Shown: positions 2,665 to 25,801 of the stretch, one piece after another
Layout of the letters: each line of letters starts with the position of its first letter
How positions within the stretch are numbered: position 1 is the first letter of the stretch
Origin: Nitrosopumilus sp.
Lineage (GTDB): Archaea > Thermoproteota > Nitrososphaeria > Nitrososphaerales > Nitrosopumilaceae
Assembly: GCA_965207075.1 (NCBI GenBank)
Contig: CBDBLO010000002.1
Coordinates: 1,312,001 to 1,376,000, forward strand
Direction of reading: 5' to 3'
Length of the DNA: 64,000 bases
The notes under the pieces: model-generated
Database searches by the model: none
The model's input: only the letters and a program-made list of their open reading frames with translations
What the model was told of the DNA's origin: nothing
Translations under genes and position numbers: made by a program

Positions 2665-4001
2665 TGTAGAGTCGGAAAATGATGTCACGGTGTGTCGTGA
2701 CATTGCTCCACGCATGCCTGGACTCCATATGAATTTTGAATTCCCGGTTCCGCTGGGCCAGCCCAAGCGGCCGGCAGCGTGCCCGACGTGCGCGAACTGC
2801 CGCGAAAGGTACGCTTTTACATGATCGTGCGCAGCATACGCTGGAGGGTCCTACGGCGGGGTTGACTGAGGTGTCTTACCCGTCGTCATCCTTGTATGAC
2901 CGGCCCTCTGGGAGCCTCCGCTCGCGGTATGCGTCCGCGGGCGTCTGCCCGTACAGGCTGCCGTGCGGCTTGTTGTTGTGGTTCCTGACGAACCTGGCAG
3001 TCGGGTCGCTCTCCATTGCGGCGGGGGCGCCAAACGGGGCCGCCGTGCCCGGCGGTCCCGCAACGTCGGCAAAGTGCCCGACCTTGTACTTGTACTCCTT
3101 GAACACGCGCTCCGCCTTGCCATTGGTCTGGGGATGCCCCACGCGCGCCAGGATCTGCTTTACGCCGGCGTCCCCGAGGTGCTCCTCAAAGTGCGTGCGC
3201 CCCCTTTCGCGCTTTGCCTCGGACTCCATGGCGTAGAACTGGGATCCGTGGTCGGTCAGGACCGAGTACGGCGTCCCGTGCGCCAGGCAGGCCTGCTTGA
3301 AGACCGCGGTGGCGTTCTCGGACGTGGCGCGGTCAAACACGCCGTGTCCGACGATGTACCGGGACGAGTCGTCCACGTATACGATCAGCCACCTCCCGTC
3401 CTCCAGCTGCGTATAGTCCGCGTGCCAGAGCGTGTTGCTGTGCCTCCGCTCGTACCTCACGTACCTGCGCTGCCTCTTCTTGGCGCGCTCCTCGCGCGCC
3501 AGCCCGTTCTCAAGCAGCACCCGGTGCACTACATCCTTTGGGACGTGGTCCCCCGCGTTCCTGATGTGCCAGTATGTGGCAGACGCGCCGTTTACGACCC
3601 GGCCGAACGCGGCCAAAACCGCGGAGTGCTCCCTGCGCCCCGGCTCGCCCTTCCGGTGCCTGCCGGGGCGCCTTGGAAGGTACAGTATCCGCCCCGTGTC
3701 GAGGCGCCTGAACCGGCTCCAGATGCGCTGCACCTGCCTTATGCAGACCTTCAGGATGCCTGCAATCGTCTTGTTGCTTGTCCCCCTCCTCTTTTCGCGG
3801 ACGATGAACCTTGCGTCAAGCGTGTCCAGCTTGCGTATGGGCTTCCTGCCCTTCTCGCTGGCGGTCTTGAGTATGCGCTCGGTCTCCTCCCTTTGTTCCT
3901 GTATGAGGACATGTTCGTCATACTTGGTTTGAGGTGTCATTACGCCTCCCTCCATGTCGGCTCTCTTATGCGTCGGGGTGACATGATTCCCCGACTCTTC
4001 A
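2665..4001 (-). mobile_element. IS481-family insertion sequence, copy 1 (1337 bp)
   Basis: Imperfect 24-bp TIRs TGTAGAGTCGGAAAATGATGTCAC / TGAAGAGTCGGGGAATCATGTCAC; 15-bp TSD TGCAGCCAAAAACGG at 2650-2664 and 4002-4016; near-identical to 24465-25801. Confidence 0.93.
2876..3955 (-). CDS. IS481-family transposase (rve integrase core)
   Basis: N-terminal HTH; DDE triad in WHADY, LTDHGSQF, HPQTNGKAER; start 3955 or 3940 (GGAGG upstream of the latter); the ORF-track start at 4054 lies outside the element. Confidence 0.92.
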   Translation of the reverse strand: MEGGVMTPQTKYDEHVLIQEQREETERILKTASEKGRKPIRKLDTLDARFIVREKRRGTSNKTIAGILKVCIRQVQRIWSRFRRLDTGRILYLPRRPGRHRKGEPGRREHSAVLAAFGRVVNGASATYWHIRNAGDHVPKDVVHRVLLENGLAREERAKKRQRRYVRYERRHSNTLWHADYTQLEDGRWLIVYVDDSSRYIVGHGVFDRATSENATAVFKQACLAHGTPYSVLTDHGSQFYAMESEAKRERGRTHFEEHLGDAGVKQILARVGHPQTNGKAERVFKEYKYKVGHFADVAGPPGTAAPFGAPAAMESDPTARFVRNHNNKPHGSLYGQTPADAYRERRLPEGRSYKDDDG

Positions 4002-8585: not shown

Positions 8586-9905
8586 TCACAGACCTATGCG
8601 GTAATAGTCCCATCTCTCGGGATCAAACCGGGCCACGAACTCGGCCTCCTCCTTGCTCACCCTGGCGCTGACCACGTCCCGCAGCGCAAAGCTTGTGAGG
8701 TATGTGTATTTCTTGGCGCTCGCCTGCATGATGAACATGTTGCGCATGCCGCTTCCGCCTCCCAGCCCCCAGTACCCTATGCTGAGTCCCATTGGCTCCA
8801 GGAATATGGTGTTGGACATGCCGTGGTTCTCGTCGCGTATCTCCTCTCTGAGCTTGTATCTCTCAAGCGGCCCGCCCTTTGCATACCCGACAATCTTGCC
8901 GTTCCGGCCGTTTACGCGCAGCGTGGTCAGTACGGTGCCCGGATCCATCACAGACTCGCCAAACGCAGCGTGCTTGAACTGGAGCGGGGAGGGCAGCTGC
9001 TCAAATATGTTGTACAGCGTGCTGATAAACTCTGGATCGGTCCTGGTGTTTATTGACTCGATTGTCGGTATCAGCTTTAGGTTCTCGTACGCGTGTTCGG
9101 CCTGTATTGTAATCTCTTCCTGCCTGGTCTGGAAGAACGACAGCACTGTGCTGTAAAAGTTCTTTCTCATCTGGTTTGGAAGTATCTGCATTATGGCCCC
9201 TATCATGTCGTCCTCGTTATTCAGCAGGTCCTCAAAGTACGTGACCGCCCTGCGCACTATCAGCGAGGGGCTCCATCCAAGGGCGTGGGCGTTCATCTTT
9301 GCCATCTCCATGGCCTTTGCAAAGTCGCCCAGGGCGTATCCGCTCATGCGGTCAACGACGGACAGGTACCTGCCCATCTCCATCACGTGACTCCTGAATT
9401 CCTGGTCGTCCCTGGCCATGTCGGAGCGCTCAAAGCACTGGAGCGCCCTCTCTTCTGCACTTTTCCTCATCTCGCCGTCCCAAGGATACGTGGTGCGCAG
9501 TATCAGCACCTTTACAATCTCAAAGTCTATTCCGGCCGCCCTGATCTGTTTCTGCAGGTTCTCGTCTCTGGATATGAAGTTCAGAACGCTCTCCTCGTGC
9601 GGCTTGTCCACGTTCTTTAGCGGATCCAGGTCGTGAAAGAGCGCCGCGACATACAGGTGCTCTATGTCGCTCTGCGTAATGTCGATCCTGTCCTGATCCA
9701 TGGCAAGCAGGGTCATGTACGTGACCTCCAGCTCGTGCCTGATGTTGTGGTATCCGTAGTATTTGGTGCCAAGCCCCTTGGTCTCAAAGAGGTTTATCGT
9801 ATAGTCTAGCATCTCCCTGTAGCATTCCTTATCGATGCCGCGCCGCCTCATAAGGTCCAGTATTGTCTCCTTTGTTGCGTGCGTGTATGCTGCAGTCACC
9901 TGCAT
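8586..9905 (-). CDS. HD-domain protein with C-terminal GNAT-like domain
   Basis: YHNIRHE and ALFHD motifs; C-terminal VGYAKGG...YWGLGGG; likely start MQVTAAY at 9905 (the upstream extension is low-complexity). Confidence 0.75.
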   Translation of the reverse strand: MQVTAAYTHATKETILDLMRRRGIDKECYREMLDYTINLFETKGLGTKYYGYHNIRHELEVTYMTLLAMDQDRIDITQSDIEHLYVAALFHDLDPLKNVDKPHEESVLNFISRDENLQKQIRAAGIDFEIVKVLILRTTYPWDGEMRKSAEERALQCFERSDMARDDQEFRSHVMEMGRYLSVVDRMSGYALGDFAKAMEMAKMNAHALGWSPSLIVRRAVTYFEDLLNNEDDMIGAIMQILPNQMRKNFYSTVLSFFQTRQEEITIQAEHAYENLKLIPTIESINTRTDPEFISTLYNIFEQLPSPLQFKHAAFGESVMDPGTVLTTLRVNGRNGKIVGYAKGGPLERYKLREEIRDENHGMSNTIFLEPMGLSIGYWGLGGGSGMRNMFIMQASAKKYTYLTSFALRDVVSARVSKEEAEFVARFDPERWDYYRIGL

Positions 9906-10173
9906 ATCATATTGGTTTCGTGGCGTGCTTTTAAAGATCACCGCGCACGGCCGGGGGCGACGGCCGTGCGCGAATGCCCGTATGGCTGCTCCGCTTGGCG
10001 GCTGTGCGACAGGCGTGGCTCTGGGCTGCACACGGCCGGGCGACTGCGGGGTCTGGGCGCGAAGGGCGGTTTTTTTACCGGAGACTGGGCGCGGCTGGCC
10101 GATTAACCGAGCTTGACACACAAGCCTCTCTTTGACATCATAGTAGATCACGGGGCGCCGCATGAACAAGGTT

Positions 10174-11667
10174 GGGAATCATATAGTCAAGTAAACAACC
10201 ACAATCAATATACCGTACTCTGCCGTATGTAACGCGTGTTCACCTACAGAAAGTACCGCGTGCCCGTGAGGCTGACCACGGAGGAAGAGTCAGAGATATT
10301 GAGACTCCGCGACGCGCAGCGCCAGGCATACAACTGGGCCGTGAAACGCCTCAAGTCAGGGTGGAGTACTGGCAGCGAGTATGACATGCAAAAGCTGCAT
10401 ACGGTAGAGAGGCGCACATTCCCGTGGATGGGGGAGGCGCCCGCGGCCGTACAGAGGGCCGGCATCCGCGACGCGTTTACGGCGGCCAAAATGTCCGTCA
10501 GGCGCGGGCGTGGTATAGGAGACGGCCTGAAATACAGGTCGAGGAAGCGCGGGGGGCGCGGGCCGCTCAGGTGCGGGCTACCTCCCGTAGTGGTGGGCGG
10601 ACGTAAGATCAAGCTGCCGCGCTTCGGCACGGTTGAATGCCGAGGCCCCGTGCTAGACAAGCTGCTGGAGCACGAGCCCCGGTCGTACGAGTTTGTTGAC
10701 ATGTCACAGTCCAAAGACGGCAGGAATCCCCGGTACGTACTGTACGTGTCCTGCAGGGTGCGCGTGCCGGAGTCGTGGAACTCGCCGGCATCTGCGGCAG
10801 CCGCGGCCGCTGTCGCGCCGCCAAGGCGCGCCACCAAGGGCATCGACCGTGGAGTGGTGGAACCGACCGTGGTGGCAGCGCTGGATCCGCACGGAGAGGC
10901 CGTGGATAAGACGTCGTACGACACGGCCTCCCCGTTCAGGGAGAACCGCAGCTGGTACCAACGGCGGCAGCGCAGGATGTCCAATATGAACCCGCGTTCG
11001 GGCAGGTTCCAAAGACTGCGGCGCAGGATGCGCAAAAGAATGCAGAAGGTGGCGAACCGCCGGACGTACGCGGAGTGCGTCGCGGCCAAGCACGTGTGCG
11101 ACGACCACGCCCCGCACACCATAGTGTTTGAGGGCCTCAGGCTCGGGGAGATGACACGGAGGGGAAGGGGACAGTACAAGAAGGGCTTGAACCGCGAGAT
11201 GAGGTTCGTGCGCCATTCTGTGATAGAACAGAGAGTGCGCAACCGCGCGGAACTGACGGGTATCCGCGTCATCACGGTGGATCCCGGATATACGTCTCAG
11301 GAGTGCGCGCGGTGCAGGCACGTTGCAAAGAAGTCCCGTGTAACGAGGGACATGTTCAAGTGCGTCAGATGTCATTACATTCAACAGGCGGACATCAATG
11401 CCGCCATGGTAATCGGGAGACTCGGCCTGCCAACCGTTCCCGATACAGTGCATGAGGCAGGCCCTCCGGAGGTCGGAATGCCCTTCGTGAGACGCGAACT
11501 GGATGCGCGCCTCAACTGCTTCACCGAGGCGGTCGGGGGCGTCAACGGACGGCGCGACAACCAAGCGCCGGCGCATCACCTTGCCAAAGGCATGGAGAAA
11601 GAACGTCGCAAAGTATCAAAGGATGGAGGGCCGCGCAGGCGGCAACTCACCTAAGTATATAATTCCC
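10174..11667 (+). mobile_element. Non-autonomous TIR element (IS1595-like ends) carrying tnpB, 1494 bp
   Basis: Left end GGGAATCATATAGTCAAGTAA vs right end (reverse complement) GGGAATTATATACTTAGGTGA, 16/21 matches; 8-bp direct repeat ACAAGGTT at 10166-10173 and 11668-11675 abutting both ends; tnpB stop lies inside the right TIR. Confidence 0.8.
10236..11654 (+). CDS. tnpB: RNA-guided endonuclease TnpB (IS200/IS605 OrfB family)
   Basis: RQAYNWAV, RuvC-I KGIDRG, RuvC-II IVFEGL, zinc ribbon YTSQECARC...FKCVRC, RuvC-III ADINAA; about 80-aa tail after RuvC-III. Confidence 0.92.
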   Translation: MFTYRKYRVPVRLTTEEESEILRLRDAQRQAYNWAVKRLKSGWSTGSEYDMQKLHTVERRTFPWMGEAPAAVQRAGIRDAFTAAKMSVRRGRGIGDGLKYRSRKRGGRGPLRCGLPPVVVGGRKIKLPRFGTVECRGPVLDKLLEHEPRSYEFVDMSQSKDGRNPRYVLYVSCRVRVPESWNSPASAAAAAAVAPPRRATKGIDRGVVEPTVVAALDPHGEAVDKTSYDTASPFRENRSWYQRRQRRMSNMNPRSGRFQRLRRRMRKRMQKVANRRTYAECVAAKHVCDDHAPHTIVFEGLRLGEMTRRGRGQYKKGLNREMRFVRHSVIEQRVRNRAELTGIRVITVDPGYTSQECARCRHVAKKSRVTRDMFKCVRCHYIQQADINAAMVIGRLGLPTVPDTVHEAGPPEVGMPFVRRELDARLNCFTEAVGGVNGRRDNQAPAHHLAKGMEKERRKVSKDGGPRRRQLT

Positions 11668-11687
11668 ACAAGGTTCAATACTCCTGG
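11410..11687 (+). ncRNA. Putative omega/reRNA overlapping the tnpB 3' end (boundaries approximate)
   Basis: Stems GGCCTGCC/GGCAGGCC (11424-11463), GCCTC/GAGGC, GGCGC/GCGCC, GCCGC-GCAG-GCGGC (11630-11643) at the position where TnpB guide scaffolds normally lie; inferred only. Confidence 0.4.
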
Positions 11688-11703
11688 TCTTGAACGGATC
11701 CGC

Positions 11704-12240
11704 ATGGGCGGGGAGGATAACCACACGCGCGGCGCCAAGCAGAATAGCATCCTGCAACTGCGCACCGAGTTGTCAAACCTTGCCTCCCTGGGCTCTTTTG
11801 AGTTTGTCGCACGCTTTGGCGGCGATGCCGACGACGGGCCCGCCACGTACGTCCTGCGCGACGTGACTGTAAGCGGGCCGCCTCCCGAACGGGACGTCCC
11901 GGCGCGCGGTTCTGGGGGGGACAACCGGACCTATTTCACGAAGAGCCCGATATGCCGCATAAACTGTTCTGCGCGCGATGTATCCATACTTGATGAGATC
12001 ACGCCCAGGATGCTGGGGCCCGGAACGGACTTTGCGGCAGTGCGGGTGGACATCCGTGCTGAGTCCGGAGGCGTGACGGCCAGCCTTGTAGCAAACGTTA
12101 CGGGCAGTGTGGAGGAGCCGTCGGAGTCGCGCGTGCAGCTCGTACTTGTGGTGGTGGATGTGGTAGATCCTCGGCTCGGCTCCAGCATGGGGCGCGACGA
12201 GCTGCAGAATATTTCCAAAACAGGGCCGAAAAACCCCTGA
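11704..12240 (+). CDS. Hypothetical protein
   Basis: ATG just outside the right TSD; beta-rich globular sequence; no family recognised. Confidence 0.5.
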   Translation: MGGEDNHTRGAKQNSILQLRTELSNLASLGSFEFVARFGGDADDGPATYVLRDVTVSGPPPERDVPARGSGGDNRTYFTKSPICRINCSARDVSILDEITPRMLGPGTDFAAVRVDIRAESGGVTASLVANVTGSVEEPSESRVQLVLVVVDVVDPRLGSSMGRDELQNISKTGPKNP

Positions 12241-24464: not shown

Positions 24465-25801
24465 TGAAGAGTCGGGGAATCATGTCACCCCGACGCATAA
24501 GAGAGCCGACATGGAGGGAGGCGTAATGACACCTCAAACCAAGTATGACGAACATGTCCTCATACAGGAACAAAGGGAGGAGACCGAGCGCATACTCAAG
24601 ACCGCCAGCGAGAAGGGCAGGAAGCCCATACGCAAGCTGGACACGCTTGACGCAAGGTTCATCGTCCGCGAAAAGAGGAGGGGGACAAGCAACAAGACGA
24701 TTGCAGGCATCCTGAAGGTCTGCATAAGGCAGGTGCAGCGCATCTGGAGCCGGTTCAGGCGCCTCGACACGGGGCGGATACTGTACCTTCCAAGGCGCCC
24801 CGGCAGGCACCGGAAGGGCGAGCCGGGGCGCAGGGAGCACTCCGCGGTTTTGGCCGCGTTCGGCCGGGTCGTAAACGGCGCGTCTGCCACATACTGGCAC
24901 ATCAGGAACGCGGGGGACCACGTCCCAAAGGACGCCGTGCACCGGGTGCTGCTTGAGAACGGGCTGGCGCGCGAGGAGCACGCCAAGAAGAGGCAGCGCA
25001 GGTACGTGAGGTACGAGCGGAGGCACAGCAACACGCTCTGGCACACGGACTATACGCAGCTGGAGGACGGGAGGTGGCTGATCGTATACGTGGACGACTC
25101 GTCCCGGTACATCGTCGGACACGGCGTGTTTGACCGCGCCACGTCCGAGAACGCCACCGCGGTCTTCAAGCAGGCCTGCCTGGCGCACGGGACGCCGTAC
25201 TCGGTCCTGACCGACCACGGATCCCAGTTCTACGCCATGGAGTCCGAGGCAAAGCGCGAAAGGGGGCGCACGCACTTTGAGGAGCACCTCGGGGACGCCG
25301 GCGTAAAGCAGATCCTGGCGCGCGTGGGGCATCCCCAGACCAATGGCAAGGCGGAGCGCGTGTTCAAGGAGTACAAGTACAAGGTGGGGCACTTTGCCGA
25401 CGTTGCGGGACCGCCGGGCACGGCGGCCCCGTTTGGCGCCCCCGCCGCAATGGAGAGCGACCCGACTGCCAGGTTCGTCAGGAACCACAACAACAAGCCG
25501 CACGGCAGCCTGTACGGGCAGACGCCCGCGGACGCATACCGCGAGCGGAGGCTCCCAGAGGGCCGGTCATACAAGGATGACGACGGGTAAGACACCTCAG
25601 TCAACCCCGCCGTAGGACCCTCCAGCGTATGCTGCGCACGATCATGTAAAAGCGTACCTTTCGCGGCAGTTCGCGCACGTCGGGCACGCTGCCGGCCGCT
25701 TGGGCTGGCCCAGCGGAACCGGGAATTCAAAATTCATATGGAGTCCAGGCATGCGTGGAGCAATGTCACGACACACCGTGACATCATTTTCCGACTCTAC
25801 A
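24465..25801 (+). mobile_element. IS481-family insertion sequence, copy 2 (1337 bp)
   Basis: Same TIRs as copy 1; 15-bp TSD GTTTCTGGCCCTGAC at 24450-24464 and 25802-25816. Confidence 0.93.
24511..25590 (+). CDS. IS481-family transposase
   Basis: DDE triad in WHTDY / LTDHG / GKAER; three amino-acid differences seen versus copy 1. Confidence 0.92.
   Translation: MEGGVMTPQTKYDEHVLIQEQREETERILKTASEKGRKPIRKLDTLDARFIVREKRRGTSNKTIAGILKVCIRQVQRIWSRFRRLDTGRILYLPRRPGRHRKGEPGRREHSAVLAAFGRVVNGASATYWHIRNAGDHVPKDAVHRVLLENGLAREEHAKKRQRRYVRYERRHSNTLWHTDYTQLEDGRWLIVYVDDSSRYIVGHGVFDRATSENATAVFKQACLAHGTPYSVLTDHGSQFYAMESEAKRERGRTHFEEHLGDAGVKQILARVGHPQTNGKAERVFKEYKYKVGHFADVAGPPGTAAPFGAPAAMESDPTARFVRNHNNKPHGSLYGQTPADAYRERRLPEGRSYKDDDG

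Follow-up and report, generated by a model that had tools for sequence, protein, structure and literature searches.

A tnpB-only element and its empty site

The 64,000-nucleotide stretch of Nitrosopumilus sp. DNA analysed here (the window, part of a 2.23-Mb genome, G000, that is assembled in 2 contigs and is 95.4% complete) harbours at positions 10174-11667 an element of 1494 bp, hereafter W, whose sole gene is tnpB. W terminates in imperfect inverted repeats (terminal inverted repeats, TIRs; consensus GGGAATyATATA), reading GGGAATCATATAG... at its left end and ...GTATATAATTCCC at its right end. An inverted-repeat search places the left TIR, GGGAATCATATAGTCAAGT, at 10174-10192 on the forward strand, with end bases (GGGAATTATA...) that recur in related genomes on both TnpB-only and IS1595-family elements, and the right TIR at 11649-11667 on the reverse strand (reverse complement GGGAATTATATACTTAGGT). 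Taken as 20-nt arms (10173-10192 and 11649-11668), the repeats are 80% complementary, with mismatches at 4 of the 20 positions and more of them further inwards. Identical 8-bp direct repeats, ACAAGGTT, flank the element at 10166-10173 and 11668-11675, and the host DNA to the right of 11667 starts ACAAGGTTCAATAC.

The orthologous locus of another genome of the same genus (G377) is devoid of the element: alignment to it extends on the left as far as 10173 and resumes on the right at 11667, in pieces that are 80-97% identical, and the empty junction reads ...GCCGCATGC/ACAAGGTT/CAATACTCCTGGCC... (in its short form GCATGC/ACAAGGTT/CAATACTCCTGG). As this empty site contains a single copy of ACAAGGTT, the limits of W are fixed and the 8 bp are a target site duplication (TSD). 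Contigs of four sequencing runs, inspected over 9700-12200, bridge both junctions of the occupied allele; a joint that skips 10174-11667 is absent from these contigs, in which the other joints stem from paralogous copies, rare empty alleles and expression being beyond the scope of such contigs. An initial annotation of the locus, made from the letters of the sequence, had named the element, its repeats and both alleles. All of the sequence features that it named are present, with the one correction that the element ends at 11667, and the occupied and empty alleles are as it had reconstructed them, the natural empty site of G377 matching its proposed 20-nt guide (see below) at 20 of 20 positions.

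The tnpB open reading frame (ORF) starts with GTG and extends over 10236-11654 on the forward strand (472 amino acids), its stop codon (TAA, 11652-11654) falling within the right TIR arm, 13 nt from the element end. The encoded protein matches Pfam OrfB_IS605 (PF01385) and Cas12f1-like_TNB (PF07282), both above cut-offs, as well as the NCBIfam model NF040570 (guided_TnpB) over residues 8-395 with 135.5 bits (cut-off 100), and the closest solved structures are TnpB/Cas12f chains (E = 6e-11). The ORF runs on for about 77 codons beyond the guided_TnpB profile, in line with the tail of about 80 codons, reaching from RuvC-III to a stop inside the TIR, that the initial annotation had described. Residues D204, E299 and D386, which sit in the motifs GIDRG, FEGL and QADINAA and which we take to be the RuvC catalytic positions, are invariant in a six-paralog alignment, and so are the zinc-finger cysteines C357, C360, C376 and C379. 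Judged by these residues, the tnpB of W is apparently catalytically intact.

A predicted omega-RNA at the 3' end of tnpB

From RuvC-III to the right end, nucleotide blocks are more conserved among the paralogs than the protein is, with visible compensatory changes. In an alignment of 14 related tails, taken from three genomes and one metagenome, RNAalifold yields 48 pairs, 21 of them changed on both sides; the counts below refer to the 44 core pairs, a doubtful terminal helix of 4 bp having been left out. Standard pairs are found in 96.7% of the 600 cells (44 pairs, 14 tails); sliding the partners by 1-3 columns lowers this share to 38.8-46.7%, and none of 500 shuffles equals it. Likewise, 21 of the 44 pairs are compensatory, compared to 2-5 in the slid controls and to none of 500 shuffles attaining this number, and the covariation score of the core was also matched by 0/500 shuffles. 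Further pair types did not rise above shuffles (221/500). The shuffle control overstates the signal because the sequences are related, and the slid control is the safer one. Given that these helices are located within the coding region, protein constraint does not explain the compensatory changes. The single-sequence fold of W constitutes weaker evidence (z = -2.38, with 3 of 200 shuffles folding as well).

The conserved scaffold core occupies 11424-11607 on the forward strand, overlaps the last ~77 codons of tnpB and is composed of eight helices defined by the 14-tail alignment: H1 (11424-30 with 11457-63, GGCCTGCC/GGCAGGCC), H2 (11468-73 with 11480-86), H3 (11491-94 with 11604-07), H4 (11502-08 with 11571-77), H5 (11510-16 with 11532-38, GCCTC/GAGGC), H6 (11540-43 with 11548-51), H7 (11552-55 with 11565-68, GGCGC/GCGCC) and H8 (11579-85 with 11589-95), all on the same strand. 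The stems noticed in the initial annotation are all part of this structure, as H1, H5, H7 and the terminal hairpin at 11630-11643, and the idea that they would covary among copies is borne out, for the core stems, by the compensatory pairs and by a covariance model of the core (R1) that matches every paralog. Across the genome R1 recovers nine sites, namely the seven TnpB copies (133-153 bits, six of these seven full copies having been in the training set), a deletion derivative (57 bits) and a fossil (35 bits). RNAalifold also offers a pairing of GGRA (11415-11418) with the last UUCC/UCCC, which has no two-sided change and is broken in copies E and F; we do not rely on it. That a conserved structured RNA of the omega-RNA kind overlaps the 3' end of tnpB is well supported by these sequence comparisons.

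Closure of H3 (...GAACGUC) is followed by a few A-rich bases and then by a predicted terminal stem-loop (11613-11660, forward strand; core GCCGC-GCAG-GCGGC at 11630-11643), the 3' arm of which is the inner right TIR. In W this stem-loop has three short outer helices with their 3' strands in the right TIR, and the last 7 nt (AATTCCC, 11661-11667) are left unpaired. In each of the 14 W-clade tails the 3' side of the terminal hairpin is formed by the inner TIR, with 1-9 terminal nt unpaired. Four or more mutually unrelated sequence types can be told apart among these TIRs (W/C, A-like, B and E/F), and every type comes with a matching complementary arm upstream (GTATC/GATAT-like, TGCGG/CCGCA, ATTGC/GCAAT and GGACCAA/TTGGTACC), as does the TIR of L026, which again differs in sequence. 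In L030, which at 74% protein identity is nearest to W among the relatives whose tail is readable, the stem is much longer and of different sequence, with the same GCAG loop. Among related genera, 10 of 12 tails contain a stem such as CCTGGG...CCCAGG and then 11-13 unpaired bases (TATATAATTCCC or similar), the remaining two folding otherwise. In an 11-sequence alignment of the terminal hairpin, 83.8% of the cells are paired versus 17-54% after sliding.

The outermost bases of the A/B-type elements differ between the two ends. The right ends read ...GTTCC (reverse complement GGAAC..) in 10 of 11 cases, the other one (L028) being ...GCTCC (reverse complement GGAGC), and the left ends read GGTGC, GGCTC, GGTTC, GGTAC or GGCTT, with AA never at positions 3-4. 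Two passenger elements that carry A/B-type TIRs but no tnpB (GGTAC/GGTAC and GGTAC/GGCAC) likewise never have AA at these positions. Such end bases point to a right-end-specific constraint. With its core covariation, the inner TIR in the terminal stem-loop and 7 nt unpaired at the boundary, the locus agrees with the candidate that the initial annotation had put forward, and an omega-RNA scaffold running through the right TIR to the element boundary is the best reading of these data and a well supported one.

A predicted guide in the flanking DNA

Copy B of the host genome and its relatives L022 and L023 show single-base differences in the last 80 nt, with no hypervariable internal segment among these close relatives. 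In the absence of such a segment inside the element, a copy-specific guide must lie outside it. By analogy with characterised TnpB and with Fanzor systems, the guide is likely the DNA just beyond the right end of W, ACAAGGTTCAATACTCCTGG (11668-11687, forward strand), consisting of the TSD and 12 nt of flank; this is the 20-nt stretch to which the G377 empty site corresponds without mismatch. The 20-mer at 11669-11688 is unique in G000 at up to 2 mismatches.

Kinship with IS1595-family transposons

The termini of W start GGGAATTAT, as in the ISNwi1-like end consensus of IS1595-family elements in ISfinder, and by these termini and its 8-bp TSD W would class as a non-autonomous IS1595-family derivative. 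In another genus of the family (g34), which is rich in W-type elements, IS1595-family DDE transposase genes are present in all four genomes searched (15, 8, 13 and 20 matches), and the W-type TIR pattern has 5-23 matches per strand in five genomes, compared to 0-1 for the reversed control. A genome of a related genus (G140) contains a 2144-bp element in two copies that are 99.9% identical (L087 and L089) and carry a PF12762 gene, TIRs GGGAATTATAGTGATGG.. (GGGAATTATAGTG..) and the 8-bp TSDs AAAATTAT and AAAAAAAT. Two other IS1595 DDE genes of G140 (L083 and L090) are preceded by GGGAATTATATAC, which equals the first 13 nt of the TIR of the TnpB elements. The connection to a DDE transposase drawn in the initial annotation is upheld by related genomes, whose IS1595-family elements agree with W in their terminal bases and in having 8-bp TSDs. 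Y1 TnpA (Y1_Tnp, PF01797) had no match in G000, a search that did not cover serine recombinases. Mobilisation in trans by DDE transposases is the best-supported mechanism.

TIRs of the A/B type (GGTACTGyT..AATTCGTGA) are found in G000 not only on TnpB elements but also on two passenger elements and on pairs resembling miniature inverted-repeat transposable elements (MITE-like pairs). The passenger elements (L040, C2:712462-714343, and L041, C2:2130842-2133056) are 1.9 and 2.2 kb long, have A/B-type TIRs starting GGTACTG... and the TSDs GCAATCTC and TCCCGCCG, and carry neither a transposase gene nor tnpB; one of them has a long ORF for a membrane protein with APAE repeats. The ends of an IS5-family element, IS1427/IS1487 (DDE_Tnp_1, DDE_Tnp_1_5; 8-bp TSDs), resemble the A/B-type TIRs in a core CTGyTTCC.AATTCG, and by this shared core and the 8-bp TSD it is a candidate for the autonomous partner of A/B-type TIRs.

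Paralogs, relatives and degraded copies

The host genome holds seven full-length copies of the W TnpB clade, with TnpBs of 445-472 amino acids. W is the only copy of its subfamily in G000, the other six being 52-56% identical to it at the protein level. The clade occurs in 3 of 151 genomes of the genus (E <= 1e-60). Relatives of 34-40% identity are frequent in genus g34 (6 of 10 genomes) and are found in 11 of 401 genomes of the family overall (E <= 1e-20). The public contigs that carry relatives belong to metagenome-assembled genomes (MAGs) of Nitrosopumilaceae, and a metagenome scan returned 3 loci only. In a search of the 151 genomes of the genus, no second W-like copy was recovered with its two ends; the relatives in G405, at 73-75% identity, are masked by N.

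Several copies are incomplete or irregular. An internally deleted B-type element (L042, C2:1472345-1472899) retains ~110 N-terminal tnpB codons, the 3' half of the scaffold and both TIRs; the nuclease domains are missing from this derivative, and it is flanked by an 8-bp TSD of its own, TGCAATGA. At C2:956903-957046 lies a fossil in which the omega-RNA scaffold is reduced to its 3' half, with a hairpin and the end ...GTTCC behind it and no tnpB remnant near it. In copy F the left TIR is present twice in tandem, at a distance of 35 bp (C2:58954-59007), and a direct repeat, TGTCAAGC(G), fits a TSD of 8 or 9 bp, and copy E (C2:19676-21082), which is 97% identical to F, has no left TIR. Copies C and D lie within a segmental duplication: tens of kb of contig C1, C2:1-87000 and C2:2120000-2180000, including these two TnpB copies, are duplicated at 80-99% identity, which is either real segmental duplication or strain variation left unresolved in the assembly.

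Copy B (C2:639558-641081), L022 (in G377), L031 (in G405) and L053 (on a metagenome contig) have differing TIR types and apparently occupy the same intergenic site. The flanks of copy B, L022 and L031 are TCAAyAAGAGATAAA on the right and TTATGACTTGTGAG on the left, with no TSD, and L053 shares the left flank only. This shared site could be due to recombination between copies, to replacement or to misassembly; guide-directed homing was considered for copy B, L022 and L031 and is indistinguishable here from recombination or MAG misassembly.

Elsewhere in the window, a 1337-bp insertion sequence with an rve-type integrase is present at 2665-4001 and 24465-25801. It has 7 copies in the genome at 97.5-99.9% identity, and a 15-bp target duplication is seen at one copy outside the window.

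Proposed role of TnpB in W and alternatives

We consider W to be, on balance, probably a non-autonomous IS1595-type transposon with tnpB alone, whose omega-RNA runs through the right TIR, takes its guide from the flank and leaves mobilisation to a DDE transposase in trans. The DNA at ~11424-11667 would encode the scaffold, with a multi-helix core and a terminal stem-loop whose 3' side is the inner right TIR and which leaves AATTCCC unpaired. Transcription would continue over the boundary, and the guide would be supplied by the initial ~16-20 nt of the host sequence (right TSD copy and flank, 11668-11687). The TnpB-RNA complex would then recognise a match to the guide where it follows host DNA, and not where it follows the TIR end, that is, in element-free alleles. 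Cutting of element-free alleles would favour copying-in or retention of W, and movement of W itself would need a DDE transposase in trans.

Several observations weigh against this proposal. As to the RNA, only 4 of 18 pairs of the terminal hairpin are compensatory in the 11-sequence alignment and 101 of 500 shuffles reach its pairing; in that alignment sequence conservation is what mostly keeps the hairpin. The terminal helix of W is interrupted and weak (duplex energy of inner TIR with upstream arm -6.0 at the right versus -9.6 at the left end), and the right end is the more stable one in only 17 of 22 elements, W being opposite; whole-end folds are not clean controls for this right/left comparison. 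An Rfam scan of 9800-12100 (E up to 10) returned 11 matches, all far below gathering scores and none relevant, and none of 18 listed sequencing runs is recorded as RNA, the RNA 3' end and the guide being those that we infer. As to mobility, IS1595-family DDE genes (PF12762) have 0 matches in G000 (95.4% complete) and in G377, and W may be stranded. Cut-and-paste excision itself leaves a break, such that the benefit of a homing nuclease is uncertain, as discussed in sections of a 2026 review (PMC13565253).

The same holds for the host DNA on the left. With a guide made of TSD and flank, the transposon-adjacent motif (TAM) of the empty allele corresponds to the host sequence that directly precedes the left TSD. 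In W this DNA reads CATGA (10161-10165, forward strand; A at -1) and in the G377 empty site CATGC, neither of which has G at -1. Twelve elements of a clade at 34-35% identity, with W-type TIRs and TSDs of 7-8/8, share no upstream motif and have G at -1 in 5 of 12 cases, and copies of the same subfamily differ upstream (AGTA/CTAT, CAAC/GGGG, CAGA/CAAC). Ten copies of a 1407-1444-bp family with W-type TIRs in G105 and G184 likewise have no upstream motif (G at -1 in 3 of 10). A fixed left-flank TAM is therefore unsupported for the TIR type of W, the upstream bases not being conserved, and the suggestion in the initial annotation that CATGA is a candidate TAM finds no support.

By contrast, two other sets of elements do have an upstream motif. 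The multi-copy family of G140 (L097-L103, L106 and L113) comprises nine near-identical TnpB-only elements of 1426-1472 bp with AT-rich TSDs of 7-8/8, and upstream of them G is found at -1 in 9 of 9, T at -3 in 8 of 9 and A at -4 in 8 of 9 cases; eight of the nine TSDs begin with T, and no mirror motif follows the right TSD (C at +1 in 2 of 9). The A/B-type elements with intact TSD have G at -1 in 5 of 5 cases (ATG, TTG, GTG, CTG and AGG); the two non-TnpB passenger elements with A/B-type TIRs have T and G. An orientation-specific upstream G would be the pattern expected from TAM selection or from TAM-linked insertion bias, and an orientation-tied motif should not arise from a symmetric DDE transpososome. 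The earlier conjecture that a DDE element inserts beside a TAM, to be seen in the 5 nt upstream of the left TSD across insertions, thus finds backing in these two families and none in the two families that have the TIR type of W, the own subfamily of W being represented by a single copy with both ends. It is possible, if somewhat doubtful, that the upstream motif (ATNG before a TSD starting with T in the nine-copy family, G at -1 in the five A/B-type elements) is the TAM and that the flank guide makes TnpB a retention or drive module. If true, either TAM-adjacent and correctly oriented insertions alone would persist or TnpB would bias DDE insertion, and such coupling of an RNA-guided nuclease to a DDE transposase is not described for prokaryotes.

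A different explanation, which we regard as rather unlikely, is that element, tnpB and RNA are left from a past invasion, are conserved by youth and are now inactive. That W is the sole copy of its subfamily, with paralogs at 52-56% identity only, fits this view, as do the lack of IS1595-family DDE and Y1 TnpA matches in G000, the confinement of the clade to 3 of 151 genus genomes, the fact that neither an empty allele nor an element-spanning joint is seen in the contigs of the four runs, and the degraded copies (E without left TIR, the deletion derivative and the fossil RNA half). Against it, the ORF is open over 472 codons with its catalytic and zinc residues kept, and the paralogs, at ~55% identity, maintain the helices via compensatory changes, which implies long selection on the RNA. 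The two TSD copies, moreover, are identical.

Less probable still is a fixed guide, in which the scaffold would stop before the TIR and ~20 nt including the right TIR would guide cutting of TIR-bearing DNA. In W, the 24 nt from the core hairpin GCCGC-GCAG-GCGGC to the boundary have a guide-like length, and since the TIR is present at either end, a single guide might serve for the two. In TnpB-type nucleases the cut is made on the TAM-distal side of the target, which under a fixed guide would fall near the element tip, and such cutting, of the own ends or of related elements, could drive RNA-guided excision or element competition. However, the pairing of the inner TIR in 14/14 W-clade and 10/12 related-genera tails leaves 1-13 nt unpaired, and the arms of W differ at 4 of 20 repeat positions and increasingly further inwards. 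In the 1407-bp family of G105 and G184 the two ends share ~9-10 terminal nt, so that a TIR guide cannot address both, and TIR types vary among paralogs while the architecture is constant. The fixed-guide reading agrees poorly with these observations.

Finally, that TnpB, with or without RNA, itself transposes these TIR/TSD elements without a DDE enzyme taking part is extremely improbable: TnpB-only elements do occur as near-identical multi-copy families (at least 9 copies with intact TSDs in G140), and G000 and G377 have TnpB elements and no IS1595 DDE match, but the copy-rich genomes are those that hold 15, 8, 13 and 20 IS1595-family DDE matches, with at least one autonomous element there that has the same terminal bases and TSD length, a TSD of its own flanks the derivative without nuclease domains, TIRs of the A/B type also occur on MITE-like pairs and on passenger elements that have no tnpB, and TnpB is dispensable for transposition, as stated in part of the 2026 review (PMC13565253).

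Comparison with known TnpB systems

The locus bears on what an RNA-guided nuclease gains inside a cut-and-paste (DDE) transposon. Elements of the IS200/IS605 and IS607 types insert beside a fixed target of 4-5 nt that doubles as the TAM. Because DDE elements insert without a fixed target, insertion site and TAM cannot be one and the same in W, as they usually are. With exact limits, a natural empty site matching the predicted guide at 20/20 positions, a well-supported scaffold and related families with many dated insertions, W offers a test case, and the empty site together with the orientation-specific motif in related families makes a good system for the role of TnpB in a cut-and-paste transposon. 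Beyond this, the compact archaeal TnpBs of G000, with their defined scaffolds, add to the pool of candidate editors.

According to sections of the 2026 review (PMC13565253), the omega-RNA of IS200/IS605 (ISDra2, IS608) and IS607 elements overlaps the 3' end of tnpB with the guide beyond the right end, and the proposed role of their TnpB is the cutting of element-free alleles; as described there and in part of a further source (PMC3119063), these carriers have neither TIRs nor TSDs. W resembles them in its nuclease family, in an RNA overlapping the 3' end of tnpB and in a guide that would lie beyond the right end. It differs in having TIRs, an 8-bp TSD of no fixed sequence and no conserved TAM for its TIR type. 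Assignment of W to IS200/IS605 or IS607 was considered and rejected in view of its TIRs and 8-bp TSD, Y1_Tnp not being found in G000.

The guide RNA of Fanzor, as reported in part of Jiang et al. (2023, Sci Adv, PMC10530073), overlaps the TIR of DDE transposons, and in some cases TAM and insertion site coincide. Similarly, the predicted guide RNA of W extends over the right inverted repeat of an element that has TIRs and a TSD. Unlike Fanzor, W is archaeal, has no introns or nuclear localisation signal, has its RNA largely inside the ORF and has a TSD without evident specificity. With the IS1595 family W shares the 8-bp TSD and the termini, there being autonomous DDE_Tnp_IS1595 relatives in related genera. 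It departs from that family in that it has no transposase gene, carries tnpB and its RNA as cargo and has its right end in a structured RNA.

No association of TnpB with IS1595 was found in the titles or abstracts of the papers retrieved for the two names, and a query combining TnpB with Nitrosopumil and transposon found nothing. IS1595 has 0 occurrences in the main text of Altae-Tran et al. (2023, PNAS, PMC10691335), the supplements of which may cover it, and is not among the DDE partners of TnpB listed in the 2026 review (ISL2, IS630 and IS1031; PMC13565253). The main text of Altae-Tran et al. distinguishes six DDE-associated TnpB branches (DDE-1 to DDE-6), all with inverted terminal repeats and with the 3' end of tnpB mostly <=250 bp from the element end. 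Solo TnpBs are described there as well, in elements whose ends resemble the ends of elements with a transposase, and mobilisation in trans and a related guide acquisition were inferred. The TnpB of W resembles this class, as far as that text describes it, in being solo in an inverted-repeat element, with its 3' end near the element end and a presumed guide outside; it is unlike it in that its ends and 8-bp TSD match IS1595 and its cognate transposase is not found in G000. W is a further member of the published DDE-associated TnpB class, one whose DDE partner family is possibly not yet named in print.

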